Shown here: piece by piece, positions 4,669 through 36,220 of the stretch
Layout of the letters: every line of letters begins with the position of its first letter
Position numbering within the stretch: position 1 is the first letter of the stretch
Virus genome (UHGV): UHGV-0143367
DNA from: a virus
Reading direction: 5' to 3' (one strand)
Length of the DNA stretch: 39,254 bases
Notes under the pieces: model-generated
What the model was told of the DNA's origin: nothing
The model's database searches: none
Seen by the model: only the letters and a program-made list of their open reading frames with translations
Translations under genes and position numbers: made by a program

Positions 4669-4688
4669 ATTGGGACCATGGTCCCAAT
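4669..4688. repeat. SopB-box-like palindrome ATTGGGACCATGGTCCCAAT (centromere-like site)
   Basis: Perfect 20-bp palindrome, core identical in arms to the F sopC SopB-binding inverted repeat TGGGACC-NN-GGTCCCA. Confidence 0.7.
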
Positions 4689-18171: not shown

Positions 18172-18372
18172 TCAGTCCAGATAGAAATTGTCATTCAGCC
18201 GGCGACGATTGCCGTTGCTGGCGTTATGGGGGCAGGCATCCGATGAATGCCCAGCGCCACCGCAATATGAGCAGCGTAGGTTGGCACGGCGGGAAGAACC
18301 GCCCCACGTTTTAGGGCAGTTCGCTACGGTATGCAGCTGCGAGCCGCAGTAGGTACAACGGATATATGCCAT
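18172..18372 (-). CDS. Small protein with two tandem CCHC zinc knuckles (CX2CX4HX4C)
   Basis: 66 aa; CTYCGSQLHTVANC and CSYCGGAGHSSDAC both fit C-X2-C-X4-H-X4-C. Confidence 0.5.
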   Translation of the reverse strand: MAYIRCTYCGSQLHTVANCPKTWGGSSRRANLRCSYCGGAGHSSDACPHNASNGNRRRLNDNFYLD

Positions 18373-18734
18373 CAGTTAAACCGCTCCTTAGCTGTCTTCC
18401 GGCGGTGGCATGGCCAGCACAACGATTCGAGGTTGCTATCGTCATCGGTGCCGCCGTGGGCTTTCGGGATGATGTGATCCACACTTTCAGCTTTCATGCC
18501 TATGCCCCGGCGCCGGCAGTCCTGGCAGAGATATTTATCCCGCATCAGAATGCGATCGCGGCGTATCTCCCATGGTCTTCCATACCCGCGATCCTGTCGG
18601 CTCTTCCCTGGCTGGTAATTACGCCAGCCATCACCGGCGTGCTGCTGGCGATGGCTATCGCAATATCCTGATGGGTCGTTAGTGGCGGTAGAGCATCCTT
18701 TGTGCTTACAAGGGCGCTTAGCGCGGGCTGGCAT
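18372..18734 (-). CDS. HNH endonuclease (terminase-associated)
   Basis: C-terminal CQDCRRRG...VDHIIPKAHGGTDDDSNLESLCWPCHRRK HNH motif; start trimmed to internal Met (MPARAKRP) because the longer ORF overlaps the upstream gene. Confidence 0.8.
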   Translation of the reverse strand: MPARAKRPCKHKGCSTATNDPSGYCDSHRQQHAGDGWRNYQPGKSRQDRGYGRPWEIRRDRILMRDKYLCQDCRRRGIGMKAESVDHIIPKAHGGTDDDSNLESLCWPCHRRKTAKERFN

Positions 18735-19698
18735 TATCGTTTCCCAGCGCGTTGAAAGCAGATCGTACCGCACGAGCCAGGGCAATAGCCGCTTCTTCGG
18801 TTCGACCCCCTGGTACGTTGGGGAGAGTAGCGGCGAGCACTGCTGATAATGTTTCTTTCGCAATATCGTGGCAGGAAAGACCCAATGATGCTGTATGTGC
18901 AAGTGGTGGTAATGCTTTCGATACCATGGTGCTGCTATCACCCCAATTACTGATGATGATTCGCCCACCGCCAGCCAGATTGACAACCATGTCCTTATCG
19001 CTCACCTCAAATGAAATGCCATGAATGTTACTATCGGCACCAGATGCGGACGGGGCATCGTTTACGTTAATGCTCATAGATGCTGTATAGGTTAATGGCG
19101 TTATCTCACCGCAGCTCGTATGTTGCTTAAAGATTTGAGAGGATACTCGGGCATTTGCTATAGCCTGAGCCAGAACGTTCACAGCATCCCCGATACATGG
19201 GCGACCACTTTTCCAAGCATCGTCAAGAATCTTACCTACATCGATGTTGCTATTACTGGTCTTCGGCTTCAGCGTTTCTGCCGCGTGGATAGTTTCCGAA
19301 ATAAATGCGTTATTGATGAAGACTTCACCGTTTTCAATCTTAAATTTTGGTGCAACAAAAGAGGTCATTAAGCACATGTCGTTACTACCAGCCATTGCAT
19401 TGAGGTACTCTTCTGCATTGCTGGATGACACACCTTCGATCCAGTCACTTCCCATCCAATCACGAACTGCACCATTTTTATCAATCGGTCGTAAGCGAAT
19501 CTGCAGGCGTTCGCCACCCTTAAGGCCACCGATTAACGCTCCAACTAATGGCCATGCGATAACCTGTCTTTTCAAACGTCCATCGGCGTTGAGATACTGC
19601 ATTTCAAGCCGCGAATGCTCGCCGCTATTTTCTGGCCACTGCCATTCAACCTGGATACCCCAGACTCGGGGTGACGTTAATACTTGCGGAAGTTGCAT
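18718..19698 (-). CDS. Hypothetical 326-aa protein, possible N-terminal FN3/Ig-like fold
   Basis: AAGGA Shine-Dalgarno before ATG; lower GC than the structural block; no recognisable catalytic motif. Confidence 0.45.
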   Translation of the reverse strand: MQLPQVLTSPRVWGIQVEWQWPENSGEHSRLEMQYLNADGRLKRQVIAWPLVGALIGGLKGGERLQIRLRPIDKNGAVRDWMGSDWIEGVSSSNAEEYLNAMAGSNDMCLMTSFVAPKFKIENGEVFINNAFISETIHAAETLKPKTSNSNIDVGKILDDAWKSGRPCIGDAVNVLAQAIANARVSSQIFKQHTSCGEITPLTYTASMSINVNDAPSASGADSNIHGISFEVSDKDMVVNLAGGGRIIISNWGDSSTMVSKALPPLAHTASLGLSCHDIAKETLSAVLAATLPNVPGGRTEEAAIALARAVRSAFNALGNDNASPR

Positions 19699-21991: not shown

Positions 21992-22017
21992 AAATAAAAA
22001 GCCCCGCAATGCGGGGC
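21992..22017 (-). terminator. Rho-independent terminator (GCCCCGC-att-GCGGGGC + U-rich) upstream of lysis genes
   Basis: Perfect 7-bp GC stem plus UUUUUAUUU on the minus strand. Confidence 0.6.
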
Positions 22018-22022
22018 TGTGG

Positions 22023-23084
22023 TTATAATTCTGTAATTTCTGAGACAGTCTGTAAGAAGCGCTCCTCTTCCAGCTCAACGCCAATTGCACGCCGGCCCAG
22101 CTGCATAGCTGCTTTGACCGTTGCCCCCGAACCCATAAAGAAGTCGGCTACCAGGTCGCCAGGGCGAGTACTGGCTGAGATGATATCGATCATCATCTCT
22201 ATCGGCTTTTCACATGGATGTTTACCGGGATAATGCTGGACTGGTGGGTACGTCCAGACGTTCGTATGCGGTACGTCCTTTGTTACCCGGAATGGGCGCC
22301 GCAGGTTTTCGTACTGCTCACGCAAATCACCGTACTGTTTAACCAGTTCTGAATACTGCCCCGATAACTCGTTGTATTCCGCTTCCAGCACGGCGTGGTC
22401 GGACAGTAAGCCAGAGGTTTTCTTCTCTTTCGCTACCCGATTAAACAACGCCTGAAGAGCCTGGTATTGTTTTTCGCTGGGCAGTTGCCATTGGCTTGAG
22501 CTAAACCAGTGGCTGCACATTTGAGTACCCGTCGCCGCGTTAATCTCTGCTGCCGAAATACCCAGGCGCTGCCGGGTAGTTCGGAAGTATTCAATCAACG
22601 GCGCAAAGACCTGGCTTTTCAGTTCCCGGCACTTCGTCGCATACCCGGCATTACCTTTTGCGAATCCCTCAGAGCCATAATGTTCAGCAAACACAATGTG
22701 CTCAGTCGCCGGGAAATACGATCTCAAATCCTCTTTCCGGCAGCCGTTCCAACGACCGCTCGGTTTGGCCCAGATGATATGGTTTAGCACGTTGAACCGC
22801 TCGCCTATCAGCAGTTCTGTGTCAGATGACAGCTTAGGACCGCAGAATACGTACAGAGAGCCAGCCGGCTTCAGCACCCGCCAGAATTCCGCCAAGCACT
22901 CATCGAGCCATGCCAGATAATCAACAGCCGTCGGCCATTGGTTATCCCACGATGCCGCCTTTACTTTGTAGTAGGGCGGGTCGGTGATGATGGCATCGAT
23001 ACTGTTGTCCGGGAGAGTTTTTATGTATGCCAGAGTATCAGCACGCACAAGAACGGCACTGTTTATATTTACAGTGTTTTCCAT
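22023..23084 (-). CDS. DNA methyltransferase, beta-class (N6-adenine or N4-cytosine), orphan
   Basis: 353 aa; DPPY catalytic motif near the N-terminus (AIITDPPYY) and FxGxG AdoMet motif near the C-terminus (FFMGSGAT); no adjacent restriction endonuclease. Confidence 0.8.
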   Translation of the reverse strand: MENTVNINSAVLVRADTLAYIKTLPDNSIDAIITDPPYYKVKAASWDNQWPTAVDYLAWLDECLAEFWRVLKPAGSLYVFCGPKLSSDTELLIGERFNVLNHIIWAKPSGRWNGCRKEDLRSYFPATEHIVFAEHYGSEGFAKGNAGYATKCRELKSQVFAPLIEYFRTTRQRLGISAAEINAATGTQMCSHWFSSSQWQLPSEKQYQALQALFNRVAKEKKTSGLLSDHAVLEAEYNELSGQYSELVKQYGDLREQYENLRRPFRVTKDVPHTNVWTYPPVQHYPGKHPCEKPIEMMIDIISASTRPGDLVADFFMGSGATVKAAMQLGRRAIGVELEEERFLQTVSEITEL

Positions 23085-23220
23085 GGTGTTTATCAGCCTT
23101 TTTTGATAGGCTCGTTTTGCTGTTGCGCATCAGCAATGGGCCTTGTTTCACCCTGTCCCGCGGCATGGGCTGAAAGCTGTGGCATGGTCACACATGCTGC
23201 AGCGCCCATTTTCAAGGCAC

Positions 23221-23244
23221 AAAAAAACCGCCATGAAGGCGGTT
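23221..23244 (-). terminator. Rho-independent terminator (AACCGCC-ttcat-GGCGGTT + U7)
   Basis: Stem-loop followed by a U run on the minus strand. Confidence 0.55.
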
Positions 23245-23317
23245 AGAATAAGCTGGTTACAGAAAACCCAACTTAGAAAAAGTTTAATTTTTTTGTGAAG
23301 TTTTTGCAAGCTCCAGG

Positions 23318-23335
23318 TTGGGACCATGGTCCCAA
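23318..23335. repeat. SopB-box-like palindrome TTGGGACCATGGTCCCAA
   Basis: Perfect 18-bp palindrome in an AT-rich intergenic region. Confidence 0.7.
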
Positions 23336-23422
23336 TTTATCCGCGTCGCCACAACACGCCTGGAATATCCAACCTATCCGCCATCGACAAGCTGGGAAAT
23401 AGGACATATCAAAGCATCTGGA

Positions 23423-23704
23423 TCACCCGGCAGACTGGCGATCAGAGCTAGAGCCATACAGGCTGTAGTACTTGCTGCTCTGCTGATACAACTCAACATC
23501 TATCCGCTTTCGTATGGCTTCACAGTCTTGAGTCATCTCTCCAGCAGCGCCCATTAAATTAATGGCCTCGTTCAGATAAATGCTGCCTTCACTGCTATCC
23601 AGCGTCCGACGAACAACCTGAATCAATGCGTTTAGCTGCTGTAGTTTCAACGCGAGTAAATCAGAACTGCATGTGTCGTCTGTCATCAATTCAACCTCCT
23701 GCAA
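23423..23704 (-). CDS. Hypothetical protein
   Basis: 93-aa ORF. Confidence 0.35.
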   Translation of the reverse strand: MQEVELMTDDTCSSDLLALKLQQLNALIQVVRRTLDSSEGSIYLNEAINLMGAAGEMTQDCEAIRKRIDVELYQQSSKYYSLYGSSSDRQSAG

Positions 23705-23713
23705 CCTAGCTAC

Positions 23714-23950
23714 TTAATCCGGCAGCCAGCTATCGTCTTCCCAGACGCTCTGTAAGATGTCCATAGCTGCACTGTGCTCATCTGCTGATTTAGTGCCGGT
23801 GATCTGCACCGCAGAGCTACTGCTCTTTGCTATGCGCAATGTGAATTTTTCGAACTGAGGGGAAAGGCGCTGCTTTACCTGCTCTGAAAGAGCGGCCATT
23901 ACTTTTTCTGAAACCTTAGCTTCTTGATCAATAAGTATTTCTACTCTCAC
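23714..23950 (-). CDS. dinI: DinI-like protein (RecA/SOS modulator)
   Basis: 78 aa; MRVEILIDQ N-terminus and ILQSVWEDDSWL C-terminus resemble E. coli DinI (MRIEVTIAK...ILQETWESADDW) as recalled. Confidence 0.65.
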   Translation of the reverse strand: MRVEILIDQEAKVSEKVMAALSEQVKQRLSPQFEKFTLRIAKSSSSAVQITGTKSADEHSAAMDILQSVWEDDSWLPD

Positions 23951-24034
23951 CGAGATCCCCTTTCCTTGATGATACTGTTTATTTATACAGTGTAAATAGA
24001 GAAAGGGGATCTTCCAAGCTGATTTTAAAAATAT

Positions 24035-24661
24035 TTATCGTATCGATAGGTTTTTGTATCGGATTGTTATCAATCCATATTTCCCAGAACTGATTGCAGC
24101 GGCGCCAGCGGCCAGGATGTCATCACGGTTTATCGGTAGGCCGGCGGCAAGGATTGGATGCTCCCCGGGGATAAATTCAGCAACGCAGTGGTTTTCGGTC
24201 TGCTCGTTGTCTATTTTCCCTGTCGCTGAATCCACAAAACCTACTCGGCCAACGATAAACCAGATTCGGCTGGCCAGCTGCCAGGGAAACCAGTTTTCGC
24301 CAGGACGGGCACGGAAAAGCCATTGAGAATAAGCACCACGCTCAGCCTCTACGCGCGCCTTACGGAAGAAGTTTCCCATGCCATTGTGCGGAGTGGCCGC
24401 TCGGCTGTCCTCTTTCGAGAATGGCGGGTTGGCATAAAGCGCCGGCAGTACGCCGCGACGTTTTGTTTCAGCCATCCAGTCCAGCTGCAGGCAATTATCT
24501 TCGCGGGTAAAAAACTCCGGCAGAAGATGATTTTCAGTGCTGGCGCATGCATCAACATGGCAAGGGCGCAATAGCTCGAAAAGGCCCGCGGCTATGCGCG
24601 GGTCAGTTCTCCATGTGTCTCGATGCTCAGCGGCGGTGTGGCTGCGATGATCTAAGAGCAT
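24035..24661 (-). CDS. Phage Dam-family DNA N6-adenine methyltransferase
   Basis: 208 aa; NPPF motif (LYANPPFS) preceded by a DACAS segment, arrangement of small phage Dam-family enzymes. Confidence 0.65.
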   Translation of the reverse strand: MLLDHRSHTAAEHRDTWRTDPRIAAGLFELLRPCHVDACASTENHLLPEFFTREDNCLQLDWMAETKRRGVLPALYANPPFSKEDSRAATPHNGMGNFFRKARVEAERGAYSQWLFRARPGENWFPWQLASRIWFIVGRVGFVDSATGKIDNEQTENHCVAEFIPGEHPILAAGLPINRDDILAAGAAAISSGKYGLITIRYKNLSIR

Positions 24662-24888
24662 GCCACCTCCCGAATACGATAGCTGTATGACTTACCTGGC
24701 CCGTTGGAACGGCGCTCGGCTTCACCCAACTCTACTGCGCTATCGAGCATGCGACGAATAGTCCTAGTATTCAGGCCAACATCAAATGACAACGTGCCGG
24801 TAGAAATGAAACCATCACCGCCGGCAGTGACGTTCGCCATTGTTCGGCGCGTCAATGTGTTTATCAATACGATGTTCCGGTCTATCAT
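24652..24888 (-). CDS. Hypothetical protein
   Basis: 78-aa ORF, translationally coupled. Confidence 0.35.
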   Translation of the reverse strand: MIDRNIVLINTLTRRTMANVTAGGDGFISTGTLSFDVGLNTRTIRRMLDSAVELGEAERRSNGPGKSYSYRIREVACS

Positions 24889-25196
24889 GCGCCCCCCTGA
24901 TCTGCGTCGGGTAAACGCTTAATTAGTTCCTGCACATCATCAACAATTTTCTCAGCCTGCAGGCGAAGGTCGCTTTTCGGAGTAGGGCGATCCCATTTTG
25001 CCATCTGGGCGCTTTCTTCTGCAGAATGCGTTGCCAACCGAGACAGCTGTCCGTTAAGACCATCATCAATATTGCGCGTTTCGTCAGCTTTCATGCCGTT
25101 ACACTGCCCATATTCAACATCAACATATTCGCGAATATCCTGGCTTGTCGCAGTATCTGGCACTTCAATTTCGACTGTCACTGTTACTACTTTCAC
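24885..25196 (-). CDS. Hypothetical acidic protein
   Basis: 103-aa ORF. Confidence 0.35.
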   Translation of the reverse strand: MKVVTVTVEIEVPDTATSQDIREYVDVEYGQCNGMKADETRNIDDGLNGQLSRLATHSAEESAQMAKWDRPTPKSDLRLQAEKIVDDVQELIKRLPDADQGGA

Positions 25197-25447
25197 TGTT
25201 CCGGCCTCCAGTCGAGTGGAAATACCTCATCCAAGAATCGGCAATTTGTCGCCTTACCATCGCGCGATTTAACGAGAATGTTCACAACGAATATGCCAAG
25301 ACGGTGTTCCTCTTCAATAACTGATTTTCTGACTTCATAGCCGACAACCTCATATTCGCGCATACCGCATGACGACAGGTTAATAAGCACGAAACAACCG
25401 ACGGGAGGAAGGTTTTTCCCATCCCAGATACTTTTCATTCCCATCAT
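25193..25447 (-). CDS. Hypothetical protein
   Basis: 84-aa ORF. Confidence 0.35.
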   Translation of the reverse strand: MMGMKSIWDGKNLPPVGCFVLINLSSCGMREYEVVGYEVRKSVIEEEHRLGIFVVNILVKSRDGKATNCRFLDEVFPLDWRPEQ

Positions 25448-25740
25448 GCTTCTCCTTCGATAACCAATCTGCGCACTTTAATCAGGTGTGGACGGGTTAG
25501 TTTGCACAGTTGCTCGGTTGCGGCGTCGATGGTGTCGAACTTGTGCGCCTCTTCGATATTCAGCGTCCAGTATTTGGCCTTACCATCACCTAAATCAGAC
25601 TCGAAATAGTTTCGCTTTACGTCCATACGCTTTGGCCTACCGAGCATCAACACAATGCCACGCTCATCAAAGAGAATGTCGTCACCCTCCAGCGTCATTA
25701 GGACAAATGGCCCTTCTGGTTTCACTGTTTTGATTGTCAT
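25444..25740 (-). CDS. Hypothetical protein
   Basis: 98-aa ORF. Confidence 0.35.
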   Translation of the reverse strand: MTIKTVKPEGPFVLMTLEGDDILFDERGIVLMLGRPKRMDVKRNYFESDLGDGKAKYWTLNIEEAHKFDTIDAATEQLCKLTRPHLIKVRRLVIEGEA

Positions 25741-25768
25741 AATCCGCGCTCCTTTCTTGTCTGAGTGC

Positions 25769-26395
25769 CTATTGCGCCGGAAATGCCGTCTCTAGATGGC
25801 AGTAATGCGCGCCGTCATGCTTAACCGATAAATCCAACTCCCTTTTACAGCGTGGGCATACAGCTACTGGCTTACAGCCCGCAGCAACAAGAGCTTCGAT
25901 TACTTGGTACTCGTTCATCACTAACGGCAGTTCGATATCTCCATCCGGATAGAACGAGTCCGGCAGCTTGACGGGGCGGAACTCCAGCTCAGCAATATGT
26001 GATTTAGCTTCTTCGTATGCATGGACATAAACACCCATCGTCCGCAGGAGGTTCAGACGGCCTGCAACTAACTCGGCAATCTGTTTATCCCTAGCTTCCA
26101 GCTCGCCTACCAGCGCCATGACATTGGTCGGATTGGCCAGCGCAATGAATGCGGCATCATGGGCCGTATTCAGCTCGCTTCTCCATTCTGAGCGAAATAA
26201 TTTGCACAGAACTACGCGAGCCGCTCCGCCTCTTAGCAAGGCAACTGGCGCCTGAACAATTGAGTTGAACCCGGAGCGCGCATAACTCCACTCGCCTTGA
26301 GTCGCAAGACTTGCGGCTAATTTCATCCGTTGAACCAGTTCAGTGATAGCGCTCATTTCTTCACCTTCCATTTGCGATCGCATTCTTCCAACCAA
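25769..26395 (-). CDS. Hypothetical protein, possibly Ead/Ea22-like, with C-terminal Cys4 cluster
   Basis: 208 aa; coiled-coil middle and CPRCK...C.H C-terminus; family assignment from memory only. Confidence 0.35.
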   Translation of the reverse strand: MVGRMRSQMEGEEMSAITELVQRMKLAASLATQGEWSYARSGFNSIVQAPVALLRGGAARVVLCKLFRSEWRSELNTAHDAAFIALANPTNVMALVGELEARDKQIAELVAGRLNLLRTMGVYVHAYEEAKSHIAELEFRPVKLPDSFYPDGDIELPLVMNEYQVIEALVAAGCKPVAVCPRCKRELDLSVKHDGAHYCHLETAFPAQ

Positions 26396-26754
26396 CCAGC
26401 TAAATTCGCGCTGGCTATTCCATTCATGCCTGTACCTAAATGATATTTTTCACGATGCTTTCTGCAGCGAATCCATACAGGAAATGCCACTATCCAGAAG
26501 ATGAACGGCCAGACAACAATTCCTGCCAAAGCAGTGATAAGAACCGCCAGCATGAGCGGTAGCTCCCTGACTTCCGTGCCAGGGAATTCATAACAAACAT
26601 CTGCAAAAGCTGAAAAAACGGCATCGTATCTGTCGGCTGTAAAAGCCATGCAGTCCAGATAGTTAAAATCGTATCCGGTCGCCGCAGCCCATGTAGGGCG
26701 ATCGAGGAAGTGCTTAAGCGTTAGCATCCTGCCCACCACTCGGTTGATATTCAT
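26356..26754 (-). CDS. Small membrane protein (uncertain)
   Basis: 133 aa from internal ATG of ORF 26353-27099; hydrophobic stretch LPLMLAVLITALAGIVVWPFIFWIVAFPVWI; overlaps exonuclease 3' end by ~40 nt. Confidence 0.25.
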
Positions 26755-27676
26755 AAAGGCCCTGGTGGCGCTTATCGCGCGTGTTCCAGTTCTTCTTGGC
26801 GGCGTTCTCCAGCTGCTCGACGTCGCTATCATCAAACACAACATCGGTGGCCTCTTCGCCATGTGCGCCGCACTCATGACAGAAAACAACGGCGCCGGCA
26901 TACAGGCCATCCTCGCCATAGTTGGCTGGGTTCCACAAAGGTTTGTACTGGAGGCCATGCAGGTGGTGAACAAACACAGACGGCGGCCCGTAGCAGAACG
27001 GGCAGGGGGCCAGCCCTGAATCATCACTGTGGTGAAGGTCAGCGCCGCTGTCTGGAAGATGGGGATCGTTGCAGACGCTTTCCAGAACGCGGAGAACACG
27101 CTGGCAGTCGGCCAGCGAACGGTGAGCTTCAGCGCTGACAGTTACACCCTGCTGAACAACGGCCATCGACAGAGACTGTCGGACAAAGTTTCTATCCTTC
27201 ATAGAAAGCGCGCCGTACCACTGGCTGTAAGTCTCTTTCGCATCGATATGGCCAGAATGAATGCGGCTGTACATTTCCAGCATGGCCGCCGGTGCCAGAT
27301 CGTTATAAAGGCCAGTAATCAGGCAGGTCTGAGTAATCAACCGGGCATCAAATTTTGAGTTCCAGGCAAGCCACTTATGGCCGCCAATCGCGGCGACTAC
27401 CGCCGGATAAACTTCCTGCCAGGATGGGGCATCAGCAACCATTTCGTTGGTGATGTTGTTGATAGCGGTCGCAGCTGCGGGGATAGGGCGGGTCGGCTTA
27501 ACAAGCGTATCAAGCAGCACATCACCACGCATATTGATGATCGAGATTTCGATAATCTCATCATTATCTGCCATCCCGGTTGTTTCCGTATCAATAATAC
27601 GAAAATCACTTTTAAGCCATGTAGCCATTAACAGCTGTAAAATAGTCTTATGTGCATTATCCATCATTATTTCCAT
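26714..27676 (-). CDS. DnaQ-like DEDDh 3'-5' exonuclease fused to a C-terminal Lar-like zinc ribbon
   Basis: Exo I motif FRIIDTETTG near N-terminus, H-x4-D (HRSLAD) Exo III-like; C-terminal CPFCYG...CHECGA...AAKKNWNTR resembles the Lar restriction-alleviation family. Confidence 0.65.
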   Translation of the reverse strand: MEIMMDNAHKTILQLLMATWLKSDFRIIDTETTGMADNDEIIEISIINMRGDVLLDTLVKPTRPIPAAATAINNITNEMVADAPSWQEVYPAVVAAIGGHKWLAWNSKFDARLITQTCLITGLYNDLAPAAMLEMYSRIHSGHIDAKETYSQWYGALSMKDRNFVRQSLSMAVVQQGVTVSAEAHRSLADCQRVLRVLESVCNDPHLPDSGADLHHSDDSGLAPCPFCYGPPSVFVHHLHGLQYKPLWNPANYGEDGLYAGAVVFCHECGAHGEEATDVVFDDSDVEQLENAAKKNWNTRDKRHQGLYEYQPSGGQDANA

Positions 27677-27867
27677 ATTCTTTGTTGATATGTCGCTGAT
27701 TGTCTGGGGCGAAATCTGCTGACTGGCAGATAAACCTGAACATATTTAAGACCTGGCTGAAACGACGCCGTTATTGATACCCGGCGTCCTGATGCTTTGT
27801 ACTTATTTGCCAGCTCCGTAGCTTCCTGTTCTGTCATTGGCCCCTGCATAAACAGATCCAATGCCAT
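27667..27867 (-). CDS. Hypothetical small protein
   Basis: 66-aa ORF between exonuclease and rdgC-like gene. Confidence 0.3.
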   Translation of the reverse strand: MALDLFMQGPMTEQEATELANKYKASGRRVSITASFQPGLKYVQVYLPVSRFRPRQSATYQQRIWK

Positions 27868-27869
27868 AT

Positions 27870-28808
27870 TTATTCCTGTGGCGTGAGGCTATTATCTTCC
27901 AGATCCACGCCGATAAACTCTTCCAGCCCGGACAGAATTTGATGTGTGTAGTTAGTCACGAGGTGCATTTCAGCAATCAAAGCCTGCGATAAGTCATCGC
28001 GTTCCATATCATCGTCGTAATCGAACGATTTTAAATGAACGTTGCCATTCGGCGGCATGACAAGGTTGAAGTTCGCTAAGTTTTCAATTTGACCATTATC
28101 AGGGCGTTTATAAAGAGACATCTCAACTGAACGGGCCGTCATTCCGGAAAGAATATTTCGTGCATCGTCAGTATCATTCGATACGCCATCAAGCGTGATT
28201 TTTAAAGACGTGTCTTCACCAGTGAATAACGTTTTCCCATACGGCGAAATAGCCAATATAGGTGGCAGCTTATAGATGCTATTTCCCTCAGTCATATTCT
28301 TAGTAACTGCTGTGGAAGTAAAATGTGAATTCCCCCATGGCATCGCATGCAGACTGCCCAGCGTGTTACGCAAAAATGACAGTGCATCCTCACACTTTGA
28401 TGCCGTTCCGCCAGAAACCAACAGAAGGCGGCGAGCTGGCCACATCAGGATGTAGATCGCGGTGTTACTGATTGGGGAGTACTTCATCACATCGCTCTCA
28501 GCCTGGAAGCGCATCTCTTCCATCAGCTCCGGAGTAACCTCCCGACCGTCTACGATTACTTCATCGGTACGTTCGTTAAGCAGACGCTGAACCGCCAGCT
28601 GGTCAGGGCGGCGCTTGCTAGCGAAATAACGGAAAAGATACTTACCATCAACAGTAAGCATGCGTTCATCGCCAATTCTGGCCCAGCCTTTACCCTCACG
28701 TTCACAATCAGACAGGCCATCAAACGCACGTTCGATGAGTAGTTCGTTGATGTTTTCGGGTACTGCTGTTTTGCTGATGTAAGGGAATACGCAACGGAAG
28801 TTTTTCAT
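27870..28808 (-). CDS. rdgC: RdgC-like recombination-associated protein
   Basis: Matches E. coli RdgC segments as recalled (ASKCEDALSFLRNTLGSL vs AKKAEDTLALLRKSLGSL); start set to internal MKNFRCVF. Confidence 0.65.
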   Translation of the reverse strand: MKNFRCVFPYISKTAVPENINELLIERAFDGLSDCEREGKGWARIGDERMLTVDGKYLFRYFASKRRPDQLAVQRLLNERTDEVIVDGREVTPELMEEMRFQAESDVMKYSPISNTAIYILMWPARRLLLVSGGTASKCEDALSFLRNTLGSLHAMPWGNSHFTSTAVTKNMTEGNSIYKLPPILAISPYGKTLFTGEDTSLKITLDGVSNDTDDARNILSGMTARSVEMSLYKRPDNGQIENLANFNLVMPPNGNVHLKSFDYDDDMERDDLSQALIAEMHLVTNYTHQILSGLEEFIGVDLEDNSLTPQE

Positions 28809-29044
28809 CTTATTTTCCTTTATAACGACGATTAGCATTGGCCCTGGCCTTATCCATGGCTTGCTGACGTTGGCTCTTTGTATTTGCCTTTGCTACTGGC
28901 TGCACGCTGGGTTCTGCCTGCCGTTTCGCTGGCGGGGAACGCAACCGCGCAATAAGTAGAAATAGCGATGAGTGAAATCACCAGAATCGTGATAAGTGCG
29001 ATTCGTCCCGAAAAGGTTATCTGCCATAATTACCTCATCCGATT

Positions 29045-29062
29045 TTGGGACCATGGTCCCAA
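29045..29062. repeat. SopB-box-like palindrome TTGGGACCATGGTCCCAA
   Basis: Perfect 18-bp palindrome, intergenic. Confidence 0.7.
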
Positions 29063-29066
29063 TGAG

Positions 29067-29369
29067 TTAAATATTCATCTTTTTTGCAAGACTTTCATTT
29101 TGTTGCTCTGTATAGCGCTTTAACCAAAGCTCCTGAATATGCTGGTCACCTGGTTTATTTGCGCCACACCACTCCGCAATAACGGCATTTCGACACCAGT
29201 CAGGATGTGTTCTGAATCCGCAAGATGGACAAAACATCAAATATTCATTGCGTAGCTCAGATCTAACTAATTTCGGTTTTACTGCGTGGTGATGCATTAC
29301 TTGTTTGCAAAGGCAGGAAGGAATTTCACCGCCTGTTGCTGATATGCTTCTTCCGTAATTGGTCGACAT
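29067..29369 (-). CDS. Small Cys/His-rich (zinc-ribbon-like) protein
   Basis: 100 aa with CLC...H, CPSCG, C...C clusters; function unknown. Confidence 0.4.
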   Translation of the reverse strand: MSTNYGRSISATGGEIPSCLCKQVMHHHAVKPKLVRSELRNEYLMFCPSCGFRTHPDWCRNAVIAEWCGANKPGDQHIQELWLKRYTEQQNESLAKKMNI

Positions 29370-29991
29370 GTATTAACGCCTCCCGATCCATTTGAACACC
29401 GCAGGCCAACATGACATCCCAGCGATTTTTATAATTCTTCCGCCATAGGTCATATTTCACACCACATAGCTGGCTCAATTCTTCCTGGCTGTATTTAAGC
29501 TCGCCGCGGTTAATGAAATTTTTTGATTCCTGTAGAGCCAACCAGGCAAGTGCTTTTAAGTTGCTTTCAGTCTTGCCGTTCATTTTTGGCGATTTGCTTT
29601 CAGCCAAGTTAATCAGCAGGGAATGCCAGATATGTGTTGTCAGTATTGTTTGATATTCAAATGAAATTGAATCGCCGTAGCAGTAATTCAACCAGGATTT
29701 ATACGGCTCAGGCATTTTCAATAACGCGCTACGCCATGACACCTGGCTAAAAATGGCTGGCGATACCGGGATCATGCTCGTATGGTAACGCTTGCCTTCT
29801 CTGTAGCTGATTGGCTCGGCATCAATGACAATGACAGTGTCGTTATCGATATCAATTTCACGCTGCGGCTTTGCAGTAAATCGGCTCTGCAGTGGCGCAC
29901 GTTCTGCCATCGCGATGATCTGATTGCGGTGCGATTTTGAGAACGACAAAAGCGCTGCAGTAAGCTCGTTGCGAACAAAATTAAACTGCAT
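29326..29991 (-). CDS. Hypothetical regulatory protein (candidate late antiterminator Q by position)
   Basis: 221-aa ORF downstream of cro in the immunity region; no motif confirmed. Confidence 0.35.
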   Translation of the reverse strand: MQFNFVRNELTAALLSFSKSHRNQIIAMAERAPLQSRFTAKPQREIDIDNDTVIVIDAEPISYREGKRYHTSMIPVSPAIFSQVSWRSALLKMPEPYKSWLNYCYGDSISFEYQTILTTHIWHSLLINLAESKSPKMNGKTESNLKALAWLALQESKNFINRGELKYSQEELSQLCGVKYDLWRKNYKNRWDVMLACGVQMDREALIHVDQLRKKHISNRR

Positions 29992-30634
29992 ATTTGCCCC
30001 CTGCTTGATGGCCTAGCGGGCTTAGCGCACTAAGTTCAACGTGGTCCGGTTTAATGCCGGTGGCCATTTCTATATTCAGGATTTCCCGATAGAGGTATGA
30101 CGACAACTCATACAGGCGGTTCTGCAGCTGCTTCAGCGCGTGCTGGTCATCACTGCCATCGTATACACCGTCCTGGGCTGGCGCTGAGTTGGCGAGAACG
30201 GCACCGAATTTCACAGTGATCTCGTCAATTTCAGCGTCGACAGAATCAACACGAATACGGTTGTACTTAGGCATGCGGACCCATTGCAGACCCTGCATTG
30301 CGGCCAGCTTTTGAGAGCACTTATTACGGTACTCTTCCGGAAGACATGACAACCACGTTAACACCCAGTCTGCAGGCATCGGCGTATCACCAGCCAGGAC
30401 GCGCTGTGCACGCTTAATGCAACGGCTACGCCAGCGCATGTAATCCGTGACATTGATGCCTTCAGACCCCATATCAACAAGTCCCTGGAGTTCCAGAGCC
30501 GGAATCAAGCGCATTGTAGAGAATTGTGCGACACTGCCGCCGGTTTCATCGAGCATCCGCAAGGTTGCCCGTATAACCACTGATGACATTGTGTCTCGCG
30601 ATGGACGTTTATTCTGCCCCATGGTCTGAGTCAT
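29981..30634 (-). CDS. Hypothetical early protein downstream of cro (candidate regulator)
   Basis: Start at ATG 30634 with AAGGA Shine-Dalgarno; overlaps cro 3' end. Confidence 0.4.
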   Translation of the reverse strand: MTQTMGQNKRPSRDTMSSVVIRATLRMLDETGGSVAQFSTMRLIPALELQGLVDMGSEGINVTDYMRWRSRCIKRAQRVLAGDTPMPADWVLTWLSCLPEEYRNKCSQKLAAMQGLQWVRMPKYNRIRVDSVDAEIDEITVKFGAVLANSAPAQDGVYDGSDDQHALKQLQNRLYELSSYLYREILNIEMATGIKPDHVELSALSPLGHQAGGKYAV

Positions 30635-30815
30635 CCTTTTCTTTATGCAGTGTGTAATCAGATTTGAGTCGGCCATTTGTCTTAACTTCCAGCTCGTACT
30701 GCCTAAGCATGGGGACATCCTCTCCCCATTTGTAGATCGCAACGCGAGTACAACCGAGCAGTTCGCAGAGTTTGTTTATGCCGCCGCAGGCGGCTATGGC
30801 GTCTTTTGTTTTCAT
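30609..30815 (-). CDS. cro: Cro-like HTH regulator
   Basis: 68 aa; HTH segment (AIAACGGINKLCELLGCTRVAIYKW); divergent from the repressor gene. Confidence 0.7.
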   Translation of the reverse strand: MKTKDAIAACGGINKLCELLGCTRVAIYKWGEDVPMLRQYELEVKTNGRLKSDYTLHKEKDDSDHGAE

Positions 30816-30930: not shown

Positions 30931-31560
30931 ATGGAAAAACGTGGTGATTGGCTGAAGGCTCGCCGTGAAGAGCTGAAGAAGCGAAATAAATCAAAGTTCT
31001 CAGTGAGAGCTGTTGCCGAACGCATCGGTATTACCGGTGCTGGCCTCTCGCATCTCGAAAACAGCGATGCTATGCCCGCGTTAGATCTGGCTATCAAGCT
31101 GGCGCGAGAGCTGGGCCGTCCTGTTGAATGGATCTTAACCGGTGCTGGCGGGGATGTGTTCCGTGGAGTCCCTGTTATTGGTTCTACTGCTACCGGTCCC
31201 AATCTGGAAATGATAAACAGCGGTCTGGCTCAAAACTGCCGGGAATTCGTTGATATCAATGTACAGGATGCAGCCTTATACGGCCTGATGGTCGATAACG
31301 ACGTTGCAGCGCCGTATCATATCGGTGAAGTACTGATCGCAGACCCTAATCGCGAGCCGGTGACAGGGGAAGATGTGGTGGTAGTCACAAAATCTGGCAA
31401 TGATACGTTTATTAAGATGTTAGCGTCTAAACGTGATGGCAAAGTGTTTCTTGACGCGCCGAACGACAGATCTCAGCGCGTGATAATCGATCTTGACGAA
31501 ATTATTTTGATTCATCCCGTTATCTGCGTGGCTAAATCTATAGCAGTTAAGGCCAGATAG
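30931..31560 (+). CDS. cB: Prophage repressor CB (CI-like HTH-XRE with C-terminal S24/LexA-like domain)
   Basis: 209 aa; N-terminal HTH (FSVRAVAERIGITGAGLSHLEN), C-terminal beta-rich domain; divergent from cro. Confidence 0.75.
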   Translation: MEKRGDWLKARREELKKRNKSKFSVRAVAERIGITGAGLSHLENSDAMPALDLAIKLARELGRPVEWILTGAGGDVFRGVPVIGSTATGPNLEMINSGLAQNCREFVDINVQDAALYGLMVDNDVAAPYHIGEVLIADPNREPVTGEDVVVVTKSGNDTFIKMLASKRDGKVFLDAPNDRSQRVIIDLDEIILIHPVICVAKSIAVKAR

Positions 31561-35878: not shown

Positions 35879-36220
35879 ATGTCGACTACTGATTTTTTGA
35901 AAACACTGGATCGTGTCCAGCTGCAGTTCTGCCGGAATAAGTGCGACGAAATGCTTCGTGCTATCCAGGAAGAACAAAAGAAGGTCGCCTGGGCGGTAAC
36001 TGATGGCTCGGTCAACTACGGCTGGTACCGAACTGAGGACTACCTTAAAGCTGTCGAATGCCTGGTACGCGAAGCTGAGAAGCGCTGGAACGAAGAGACT
36101 GAAGAAGACAAAGGCAACCCGCAAACTCGCGGCTGGCTGAACTTTTCTATTCAGGGCCAGCGCCTGCCGGCGTCCGAATACGAAGCGCTGTTTGCTGATG
36201 GCCAGTGGGGGTTAACGTGA
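35879..36220 (+). CDS. Hypothetical protein, first gene of operon downstream of repA
   Basis: 113 aa; strong Shine-Dalgarno (AAGGGGA) 10 nt after the repA stop. Confidence 0.45.
   Translation: MSTTDFLKTLDRVQLQFCRNKCDEMLRAIQEEQKKVAWAVTDGSVNYGWYRTEDYLKAVECLVREAEKRWNEETEEDKGNPQTRGWLNFSIQGQRLPASEYEALFADGQWGLT

Follow-up and report, generated by a model that had tools for sequence, protein, structure and literature searches.

The question raised by positions 22023 to 28808 of the virus genome UHGV-0143367 is whether the genes that lie there serve a single purpose under a single control. The genome, referred to here as the window, is one stretch of 39,254 nucleotides (nt), and the region in question carries two DNA methyltransferases (a 353-amino-acid [aa] enzyme with a DPPY motif and a smaller Dam-family enzyme), a DinI homologue, a fusion of an exonuclease with a Lar-type zinc ribbon, an RdgC-like protein, and several small open reading frames (ORFs). 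An initial annotation, made from the sequence alone, had read these genes as one early cluster for counter-defence and host takeover. When Pfam assignments were judged against curated cut-offs, all five of the named genes scored above them and were present on the minus strand where they had been placed. The single early cluster had to be given up, because the DPPY methylase is preceded by a conserved late promoter and a terminator, which makes it the predicted first late gene, and because dinI and the antirepressor gene next to it are predicted to be under LexA control. We consider it highly likely that the region is instead a conserved right-arm accessory segment of the N15/phiKO2/PY54 type, in which three separately controlled units follow one another on one strand.

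Judged from its genes, the window is a telomere phage of the N15/phiKO2/PY54 type, that is, a linear plasmid-prophage, because its TelN and RepA proteins resemble those of N15 and because it has the immB arrangement of the PY54 type, in which the repressor faces cro, an ORF42-like gene, and Q (PMC4488713). The features of N15-like membership that were found comprise TelN, RepA, an immB-type switch, and dispersed SopB-type sites. All of the long ORFs between approximately 1 and 30.8 kb are on the minus strand, and Q is the third gene of a cro-ORF42-Q early operon that reads into the cluster; its product is 58% identical to Q of the Salmonella plasmid-prophage pAR-0403 and 28% identical to N15 gp40. 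When the 6.8-kb region was searched against phages by megablast, a single 200-bp match (to phiKO2) was returned, and matches to plasmids (72-79%) were restricted to the methylase and lysis end. Nucleotide matches were nearly absent, and the comparison was therefore made at the protein level, where the nearest relatives were from Enterobacteriaceae of the Kluyvera and Atlantibacter type and where divergence from every deposited phage was approximately 20-60%.

The gene order of the window matched that of PY54 ORF43-63, of pAR-0403, and of N15 genes 40-55, with protein identities of 42-78%; when the window was compared with N15, phiKO2 (genes 38-55), and PY54, the range was 42-80%. The shared right-arm order is Q, (Lar), RdgC-like or exonuclease, small ORFs, (Dam, DinI), antirepressor, partition site, late promoter, terminator, methylase, terminator, and lysis genes. 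In PY54, it reads Q, Lar-like, ORF45, RdgC-like, ORF47, small ORFs, exonuclease, Lar-like ORF52, Dam, DinI, AntA, (HicB), ORF59, methylase, and holin, and the backbone is the same in pAR-0403 and N15. The exonuclease and Lar parts are fused in both N15 and the window, whereas PY54 encodes them separately and pAR-0403 has no Lar part. Gene identities, synteny, sequence elements, and conservation were observed directly, and the architecture of the cluster is ordinary, having already been annotated in telomere phages.

On the minus strand, the sequence 3' of the antirepressor gene runs through GGGACCATGGTCCC, the hexamer pair TTGCAA-17 nt-TAAACT, TTTTTCTAAGTTGGG, a terminator (AACCGCC...GGCGGTTTTTTT), and a 135-nt leader before it reaches the ATG of the large methylase. 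The promoter, the element TAAGTTGGG, the terminator, and the leader were conserved in the window, N15, PY54, and pAR-0403 (alignment A1). Moreover, the phiKO2 record lists at the same positions a "putative plasmid partitioning site," a "putative late promoter" (-35/-10), a terminator, the methylase, and a terminator, and the N15 record annotates the same promoter (as -35/-10 signals) together with both terminators. In the window, the methylase is flanked by two strong terminators. The TAAGTTGGG element, which is -10-like and then followed by GGG, resembles the pause signal of lambda pR'. The lambda pR'-qut-tR' region has in common with the window the promoter, a -10-like element with GGG in the early transcribed region, an intrinsic terminator, and a Q gene upstream. 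The window differs from lambda in that its Q gene lies 6 kb upstream rather than adjacent, and in that it has a partition-protein site abutting the promoter and a second terminator after the first late gene.

Since promoter, pause element, and terminator precede it, the DPPY methylase would thus be the first gene of a Q-dependent late operon. The first terminator would putatively end the SOS operon and unmodified late transcripts alike, and only RNA polymerase modified by Q would read on through the leader, the methylase, and the second terminator into the lysis and virion genes. We infer both these transcript boundaries and the action of Q from the sequence. Because the methylase would be read only in Q-dependent late transcription, phage DNA would be methylated just before packaging, and a toxic methylase would remain silent in the lysogen.

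Such silence is pertinent to the enzyme in question. The window methylase is, by way of the enzyme of Shiga toxin (Stx) phage 1720a-02, assigned by sequence to the M.EcoGII family, because it is 62% identical over its full length to the 1720a-02 enzyme, which Murray et al. named as very similar to M.EcoGII (PMC5778455). M.EcoGII, a beta-class adenine methylase of 349 aa that acts without sequence specificity, is silent in the lysogen and harmful when expressed (PMC5778455), and from this likeness the window enzyme is probably sequence non-specific as well. The two enzymes agree in beta-class motif order, in length (349 versus 353 aa), in their place after Q and the late promoter, and in their expected silence in the lysogen; in 1720a-02, the methylase gene follows directly after Q. 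The window gene differs from that of M.EcoGII in being bracketed by two terminators and in having a structured leader and a LexA-type palindrome. Closer relatives were found among the telomere phages (phiKO2 gp52, 80% identity; PY54 ORF60, 75%; range for N15, PY54, and pAR-0403, 60-78%), and full-length homologues were present by tblastn in 95 phage records, including many Stx and lambdoid phages (61-63%) and marine telomere phages or myoviruses such as VHML. Inactivating mutations in the catalytic motifs of both methylases were looked for, and the motifs were found to be intact: DPPY (motif IV) at residue 35 and FMGSG (FxGxG, motif I) at residue 316 of the large enzyme, which is the beta-class order, and NPPF at residue 78 and D-A-C-A-S (DACAS) at residue 37 of the Dam-family enzyme. 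The RefSeq record of N15 (NC_001901; L002 17388-18476) starts gene 52, the homologous gene, approximately 230 nt too late, so that DPPY is lost; the full ORF begins at record position 41387.

The leader that separates the first terminator from the methylase was much more conserved than nearby non-coding DNA, even in N15 and 1720a-02. In an alignment of 27 non-redundant leaders (A2), helices were assigned by eye and then tested. Four helices were recognized, namely P1a (AUGGG/CCCAU), the variable hairpin P1b, a second variable hairpin (P2), and P3, in which a junction segment pairs with positions -8 to -3 before the AUG; the junction sequences do not vary. On a plain MAFFT alignment, 77% of the cells paired, versus 27-45% with slid partners, the covariation score was 0.246 versus at most 0.114, and none of 500 shuffles reached either the observed percentage paired or the observed covariation score. 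A covariance model (R1), searched over both strands of 61 sources (726 kb), gave one strong match (51-136 bits) in each of 43 sources and none in the remaining 18, and the sole extra match scored 17 bits. Every strong match was on the methylase strand and ended at the methylase start codon or, in a Vibrio-phage group, where a 36-38-aa ORF ahead of the methylase begins; in each of approximately 16 leaders read by eye, an intrinsic terminator stood directly upstream. On the model-based alignment, 85% of the cells paired (31-45% with slid partners), both-side changes occurred in 25 of the 29 pairs, and the covariation score was 0.45 versus at most 0.11. RNAalifold recovered P1 independently; on the plain MAFFT alignment, it gave a 5-bp long-range helix only.

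In the window itself, P1 and P2 are clear. P3, which is well supported in lambdoid and other phages, is weak there and is left uncertain because just a 4-bp GGUG/CACC pairing is possible, and the window leader folded alone was not significant (z = -0.98). The 5' UGGGC has two candidate partners, a proximal CCCAU that shows wobble-compatible variation only and a distal GGCCCA that is almost invariant, with one compensatory change from C:G to G:C, a pattern that would fit a switch. Searches of Rfam returned no match at the gathering threshold in the whole window, and in positions 22900-23450 only chance-level small-RNA hits of at most 20 bits; one of these, an isrK-like hit of 13 bits over the short late transcript, was dismissed as being at chance level. 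A leader peptide (a 40-aa ORF inside the leader) was likewise rejected, since the ORF is not conserved and in phiKO2 has a stop at codon 6. On balance, we lean toward regarding the leader as a real cis-regulatory RNA, one that appears to be new and previously undescribed.

Layered control of this kind has a precedent, and the likeness suggests that the toxic enzyme is controlled at translation. In phage Mu com-mom, and in the operons of com and a non-specific methylase in Mu-like prophages, a toxic adenine-modifying enzyme is under layered late control that includes the mRNA leader (PMC3299994, PMC6483171). The window and com-mom would share a broadly acting toxic adenine modifier kept under several late-control layers. 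They differ in that the window has no com gene, its leader RNA is unrelated, and its methylase is of the beta class rather than of the Mom or Hia5 family. A Com-like 36-38-aa zinc-ribbon ORF, reminiscent of com-mom, was observed between leader and methylase in the Vibrio phage contigs L009, L010, L012, L022, L071, L073, L075, L094, L109, and L118; of two such ORFs tested against Pfam Zn_ribbon_Com, one scored 24.2 bits (cut-off, 22.9) and the other 11 bits.

Upstream of the late promoter lies the second unit, in which dinI is followed by a small antirepressor gene. Its promoter fits the sigma-70 consensus at 10 of 12 positions, better than any other site in the 10 kb scanned, and CTGTATAAATAAACAG, an exact 16-mer LexA box, stands exactly between the -35 TTTACA and the -10 TATCAT; the window contains 3 matches to the LexA pattern, versus 0.43 expected. 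An exact LexA box also precedes dinI in PY54 and pAR-0403. N15 has neither dam nor dinI, and its only LexA box is found at the corresponding position, before an unannotated 75-79-aa ORF (the AntC position); this ORF, presumed from its place to be antC, is left unannotated in the N15 RefSeq record (NC_001901; L002 15593-15832). DinI of the window is a phage paralogue rather than a host gene, because its score against the NCBIfam DinI equivalog (25 bits) is far under the cut-off (111). Its neighbor, which probably starts at the ATG at 23686 and so encodes 87 rather than 93 aa, was 53% identical to PY54 AntA, and the profile of the antirepressor family scored 28-30 bits on N15 gp31 (AntA), the N15 LexA-box ORF, and phiKO2 gp47; BLASTP against N15 gp50 and gp51 found nothing. 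All six small ORFs that had been listed as unknown do exist (93, 78, 103, 84, 98, and 66 aa), but the 93-aa one is this AntA/AntC-family antirepressor.

The repressor of the window has a helix-turn-helix domain and an S24-like C-terminal half in which no S24 peptidase domain could be recognized, and with DNDV replacing the catalytic GDSM of LexA, this CB-like repressor is probably not self-cleaving. According to the statements cited in PMC4488713 and PMC3121763, induction of N15 depends on the LexA-controlled antirepressor AntC, and Gifsy prophages have a LexA-repressed operon with dinI first and a small antirepressor second (PMC3121763). The Gifsy dinI-gfoA/gftA operons share with the window the LexA box in the promoter and this order of genes, and both N15 AntC and Gifsy share with it a location outside the immunity region and a repressor that probably lacks a cleavage site. 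Because of the LexA box, the antirepressor family, the repressor without GDSM, and the N15 and Gifsy precedents, positions 23423-23996 are read as a prophage induction switch and not as a counter-defence function. The LexA-box promoter, embedded at the end of the early operon, would drive dinI and the antirepressor; DNA damage would remove LexA, whereupon the antirepressor would inactivate the probably non-cleavable CB-like repressor, and lytic growth would follow. Both the action of LexA and the binding of antirepressor to repressor are predicted from sequence.

The remaining genes form the third unit. In the lysogen, the CB-like repressor would keep the cro promoter off; once on, this promoter would give one long early transcript of cro, the ORF42-like gene, Q, the Lar-like gene, the RdgC-like gene, the 66-aa ORF, the exonuclease-Lar fusion, the membrane ORF, the Ea22-like gene, the four small ORFs, and dam, which is the last gene in the early operon. 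The 100-aa Lar-like protein, whose gene lies a little beyond the range first annotated, was 64% identical to PY54 ORF44 and matched a PHROG only, with no Pfam match. The homologue of PY54 ORF45 that follows is split by a -1 frameshift at 28935 and is a pseudogene or a sequencing error. For the RdgC-like protein, the Pfam match was partial (profile positions 18-178 of 298; cut-off, 25) and the NCBIfam scores were far under their cut-offs, whereas the match to PHROG 724, the phage RdgC-like family, was full length; identities were 42-62% across relatives, the highest to the pAR-0403 RdgC, in an alignment starting at 28808, which is probably the start of the gene. The 66-aa ORF was 56-61% identical to PY54 ORF47 and to the pAR-0403 gene at the same position. 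In the exonuclease-Lar fusion, which was 56% identical over its full length to N15 gp41, the DEDDh motifs and both CxxC pairs are intact, and the Lar domain occupies residues 222-300 (cut-off, 28.6 bits). The 124-aa membrane ORF is coupled on both sides, its ATG overlapping the end of the exonuclease-Lar gene and an ATGA overlap joining it to the start of the Ea22-like gene, and it had no family match in the profile searches, PADLOC included. Among the small ORFs, the 78-aa one is homologous to N15 gp47 (47% identity) and PY54 ORF54, the 84-aa one has hypothetical homologues in 9NA-like phages, and the 98-aa one had no phage homologue by tblastn; the 103-, 84-, and 98-aa ORFs have no counterpart in N15, phiKO2, or PY54. 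The Dam-family enzyme was 67-73% identical to PY54 ORF55 and to the pAR-0403 Dam. Transposon insertions in the rdgC-like and methylase genes of PY54/P840 abolished neither lysis nor lysogeny (PMC10612081). The early-operon genes are read as non-essential functions in DNA metabolism, RecA modulation, and probably the evasion of restriction.

Two broader readings of these genes have to be weighed against the three-unit arrangement. The region could be, as the initial annotation had it, one early block for counter-defence and host takeover in which the small ORFs are candidate anti-defence proteins. RdgC and DinI both act on RecA, which would suit such a block, as would two orphan methylases with intact motifs, two Lar-type modules, and an early operon that holds most of the genes and has no strong terminator between Q and Dam. 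We nevertheless regard this as unlikely, since a late promoter and a terminator precede the DPPY methylase, dinI and its neighbor are predicted to form a LexA-controlled induction switch, the small ORFs had no match to any defence-related family in PHROG or PADLOC, and the arrangement is that of a generic telomere-phage arm. What stands of a self-protection toolkit is that methylases and Lar proteins fit an escape from restriction (PMC5778455 for the M.EcoGII type); the dinI unit, as an induction switch in a generic conserved arm, does not belong to it. The methylases could also be the modification halves of ordinary restriction-modification systems, given that the best PADLOC model for both was "Type II methyltransferase." However, neither PADLOC, run on 10 cluster proteins, nor Pfam and PHROG, applied to the other ORFs at approximately 20.7-30.7 kb, turned up a restriction endonuclease or another defence partner, the HNH gene nearby is part of the terminase module, and the methylases are orphans likewise in N15, phiKO2, PY54, and many lambdoid phages. 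This explanation is therefore extremely improbable, and the claim that both enzymes are orphans held. A third methylase, the cytosine-C5 enzyme of N15 and pAR-0403, was sought downstream of the lysis genes and not found.

For the second unit, the rival view is that dinI and the small ORF are merely an SOS-modulating moron that tunes RecA and has no control of induction. Deletions of dinI in Gifsy had no effect on induction (PMC3121763), and the 87-aa protein is only weakly similar to N15 AntC. Yet PY54 has the second gene annotated as an antirepressor, its product falls within the AntA/AntC family of N15, no catalytic serine motif is present in the repressor, and the LexA box is kept at the corresponding position in four of the four phages compared, so a moron of this kind seems improbable. 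For the late unit, the issue is the palindrome CTGTAAATATAAACAG in codons 4-9 of the methylase, which could be a working LexA operator that adds SOS gating or, alternatively, an mRNA hairpin or a by-product of a conserved N-terminal peptide. The palindrome matches CTGT-N8-ACAG exactly, its spacer is AT-rich, and it is retained, in 7 spacer variants, by nearly every relative whose protein is at least 65% identical; third codon positions are invariant within the half-sites while adjacent ones vary, and one Asn-to-His substitution still preserves ACAG. A separate Vibrionaceae branch of the methylase that has no R1 leader carries exact LexA boxes in many spacer variants in the non-coding DNA 164-190 nt upstream of the start, which also speaks for an operator. 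LexA-type sites ahead of the methylase genes were noted in L014-L021, L035, and L098-L119. On the other hand, the site lies inside an ORF and follows the late promoter by approximately 210 nt, an unusual location for a repressor to bind; no sigma-70 promoter was found in the leader that would give it a normal operator position; it is missing from N15 (1720a-02 carries CTGT-N8-CCAG); and its conservation is not independent because the sequences are related. The literature searched gave no link between M.EcoGII and LexA. Since flanks that extend the palindrome to CACTGT/ACAGTG would fit an RNA hairpin (CACUGU/ACAGUG) equally well, we advance the operator tentatively, as a possibility a little short of even.

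Several points also weigh against the three-unit reading and the functions assigned within it. The late promoter matches the consensus at 8 of 12 positions and was missed by an automatic scan, and the operon boundaries were drawn from the patterns of promoters and terminators and from conservation. For the methylase, non-specificity is carried over from a homologue at approximately 62% identity. The window antirepressor gave no BLASTP alignment with the N15 LexA-box ORF, the match being by profile only; that ORF is itself antC by presumption, on its position and LexA box; and the repressor could still be open to cleavage in its S24-like domain. The window antirepressor is, moreover, as close to N15 AntA, which is controlled by a small RNA in immA, as it is to the N15 LexA-box ORF.

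With these points taken into account, the three-unit arrangement is retained, and the phage methylases of the M.EcoGII family may carry an undescribed control cassette composed of the leader RNA and a LexA operator, either in codons 4-9 or upstream. By analogy with Mu com-mom, leader and operator would hold the methylase off until SOS-triggered late development, with the leader acting as a riboswitch-like or protein-dependent translational switch. The positions of these and the other features are collected in Table 1.

Table 1. Features of the window with their positions, strand, and supporting matches
Feature	Position	Strand	Evidence or remark
HNH gene	18372-18986		Adjoins terminase genes (packaging-module position); only nuclease nearby
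Second strong intrinsic terminator, in methylase/lysis-gene gap	21992-22018	minus	8-bp stem with 7 GC pairs, T-run; annotated in N15 and phiKO2
Beta-class N6-adenine methyltransferase, 353 aa, predicted first late gene	22023-23084	minus	Pfam N6_N4_Mtase, 146.8 bits, residues 29-344
LexA-type palindrome CTGTAAATATAAACAG, methylase codons 4-9	23059-23074		Exact CTGT-N8-ACAG, AT-rich spacer
Conserved structured leader RNA, approximately 140 nt, 5' of methylase start	23082-23223	minus	Covariance model R1, 124.9 bits
Intrinsic terminator (tR'-like)	23221-23244	minus	Conserved in relatives; annotated in N15 and phiKO2
Putative Q-dependent late promoter TTGCAA-17-TAAACT with conserved TAAGTTGGG (-10-like pause element)	23267-23309	minus	
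SopB-type partition palindrome	23320-23333		10 bp upstream of late promoter -35; phiKO2 annotates partitioning site there too
AntA/AntC-family small antirepressor, 87 aa	23423-23686	minus	PHROG 10889 "anti-repressor," E 6e-33
DinI homologue, first SOS-operon gene	23714-23950	minus	Pfam DinI, 57.4 bits (cut-off, 24.2)
SOS promoter, TTTACA - LexA box CTGTATAAATAAACAG - TATCAT	23969-23996	minus	In 84-bp intergenic stretch before dinI
Small phage Dam-family N6-adenine methyltransferase, 208 aa	24035-24661	minus	Pfam Dam PF05869, 71.8 bits (cut-off, 28.1)
Four small ORFs (98, 84, 103, 78 aa)	24652-25740	minus	PHROGs 30913, 26831, 8773, 13995, all "unknown function"
Ead/Ea22-like protein	25769-26395, likely start 26356	minus	Pfam Ead_Ea22, 37.3 bits
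124-aa ORF, one transmembrane segment	26353-26727	minus	Unlisted in the initial annotation; fills apparent gap
DEDDh 3'-5' exonuclease and Lar zinc-ribbon fusion, 320 aa	26714-27676	minus	Pfam RNase_T, 68.8 bits; Lar_restr_allev, 43.7 bits
Conserved 66-aa ORF between rdgC and exonuclease gene	27667-27867	minus	PHROG 1212, E 1.5e-18
RdgC-like recombination-associated protein	27870-28808 (or 28838)	minus	Pfam RdgC, 33.1 bits; PHROG 724, E 5.9e-43
Homologue of PY54 ORF45 and pAR-0403 73-aa gene, frameshifted	28816-29027	minus	tblastn matches, two frames overlapping at base 28935
GGGACCATGGTCCC palindrome, SopB-type partition site	29047-29060		After Lar-like gene; phiKO2 annotates partitioning site after Q likewise
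Lar-like zinc-ribbon protein, 100 aa	29067-29369	minus	PHROG 6795 "Lar-like restriction alleviation," E 7.7e-40
Q-type late antiterminator	29326-29991	minus	Pfam Phage_antiter_Q, 143.9 bits
PY54-ORF42-like gene	29981-30742	minus	
cro	30618-30815	minus	P22_Cro match
CB/CI-type helix-turn-helix repressor	30931-31560	plus	Divergent from cro-Q
RepA large primase-helicase ORF, 1333 aa	31867-35868		51% identity over 1338 aa to N15 RepA
Protelomerase TelN ORF, 633 aa	37141-39042		56% identity over 630 aa to N15 TelN

The partition sites are dispersed through the window. The palindrome GGGACCNNGGTCCC (GGGACC-NN-GGTCCC), which matches the SopB-binding repeat of F sopC and the sites annotated in phiKO2 and is hence read as an N15-type partition site, occurs in nine copies, at 4672, 11203, 16902, 19843, 23320, 29047, 32248, 32504, and 37116, and two of these lie inside repA. 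In N15 and some relatives (including L006), it takes the co-varying form GCGACC-NN-GGTCGC. In N15, phiKO2, PY54, and pAR-0403, a toxin-antitoxin and gp50/51 module stands between the antirepressor gene and the late promoter; the window has none at 23334-23422 (compared with L001 6250-7355 and L003 12340-13640). In PY54 and pAR-0403, SopB-type palindromes bracket the module, which suggests that it was gained or lost by recombination between palindromes.

Two further observations concern neighboring sequences. Between repA and telN, a homologue of N15 gp35 (65% identity; 35882-36211, plus strand) is the sole recognizable remnant of the N15 gene 30-36 (immA) region, and an antA operon of the N15 type appears to be missing from the window, as from PY54; neither has an immA-type operon at the N15 position. 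In Aliivibrio sp. S4MY1 (L035 7800-11524), a LexA-boxed homologue of the methylase lies in an island of approximately 4 kb next to thrS-infC-rpmI-rplT; the island also encodes an integrase and a membrane protein and contains a winged-helix gene, and the homologue does not lie in a full prophage.

The cluster adds a fairly divergent member to the small N15/phiKO2/PY54 group, of which the dinI-antirepressor SOS switch and the layout of partition site, late promoter, terminator, methylase, and terminator are conserved hallmarks. The cluster itself is ordinary, and the parts of interest are the control elements of the methylase, chiefly the leader RNA. Enzymes of the M.EcoGII type serve as reagents, and their silence in the lysogen has so far had no known reason; the covarying leader RNA, the flanking terminators, and the LexA-type sites offer a testable explanation for it. 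Moreover, the leader is a candidate for a new class of cis-regulatory RNA across enterobacterial, Stx-phage, and Vibrio-phage genomes.

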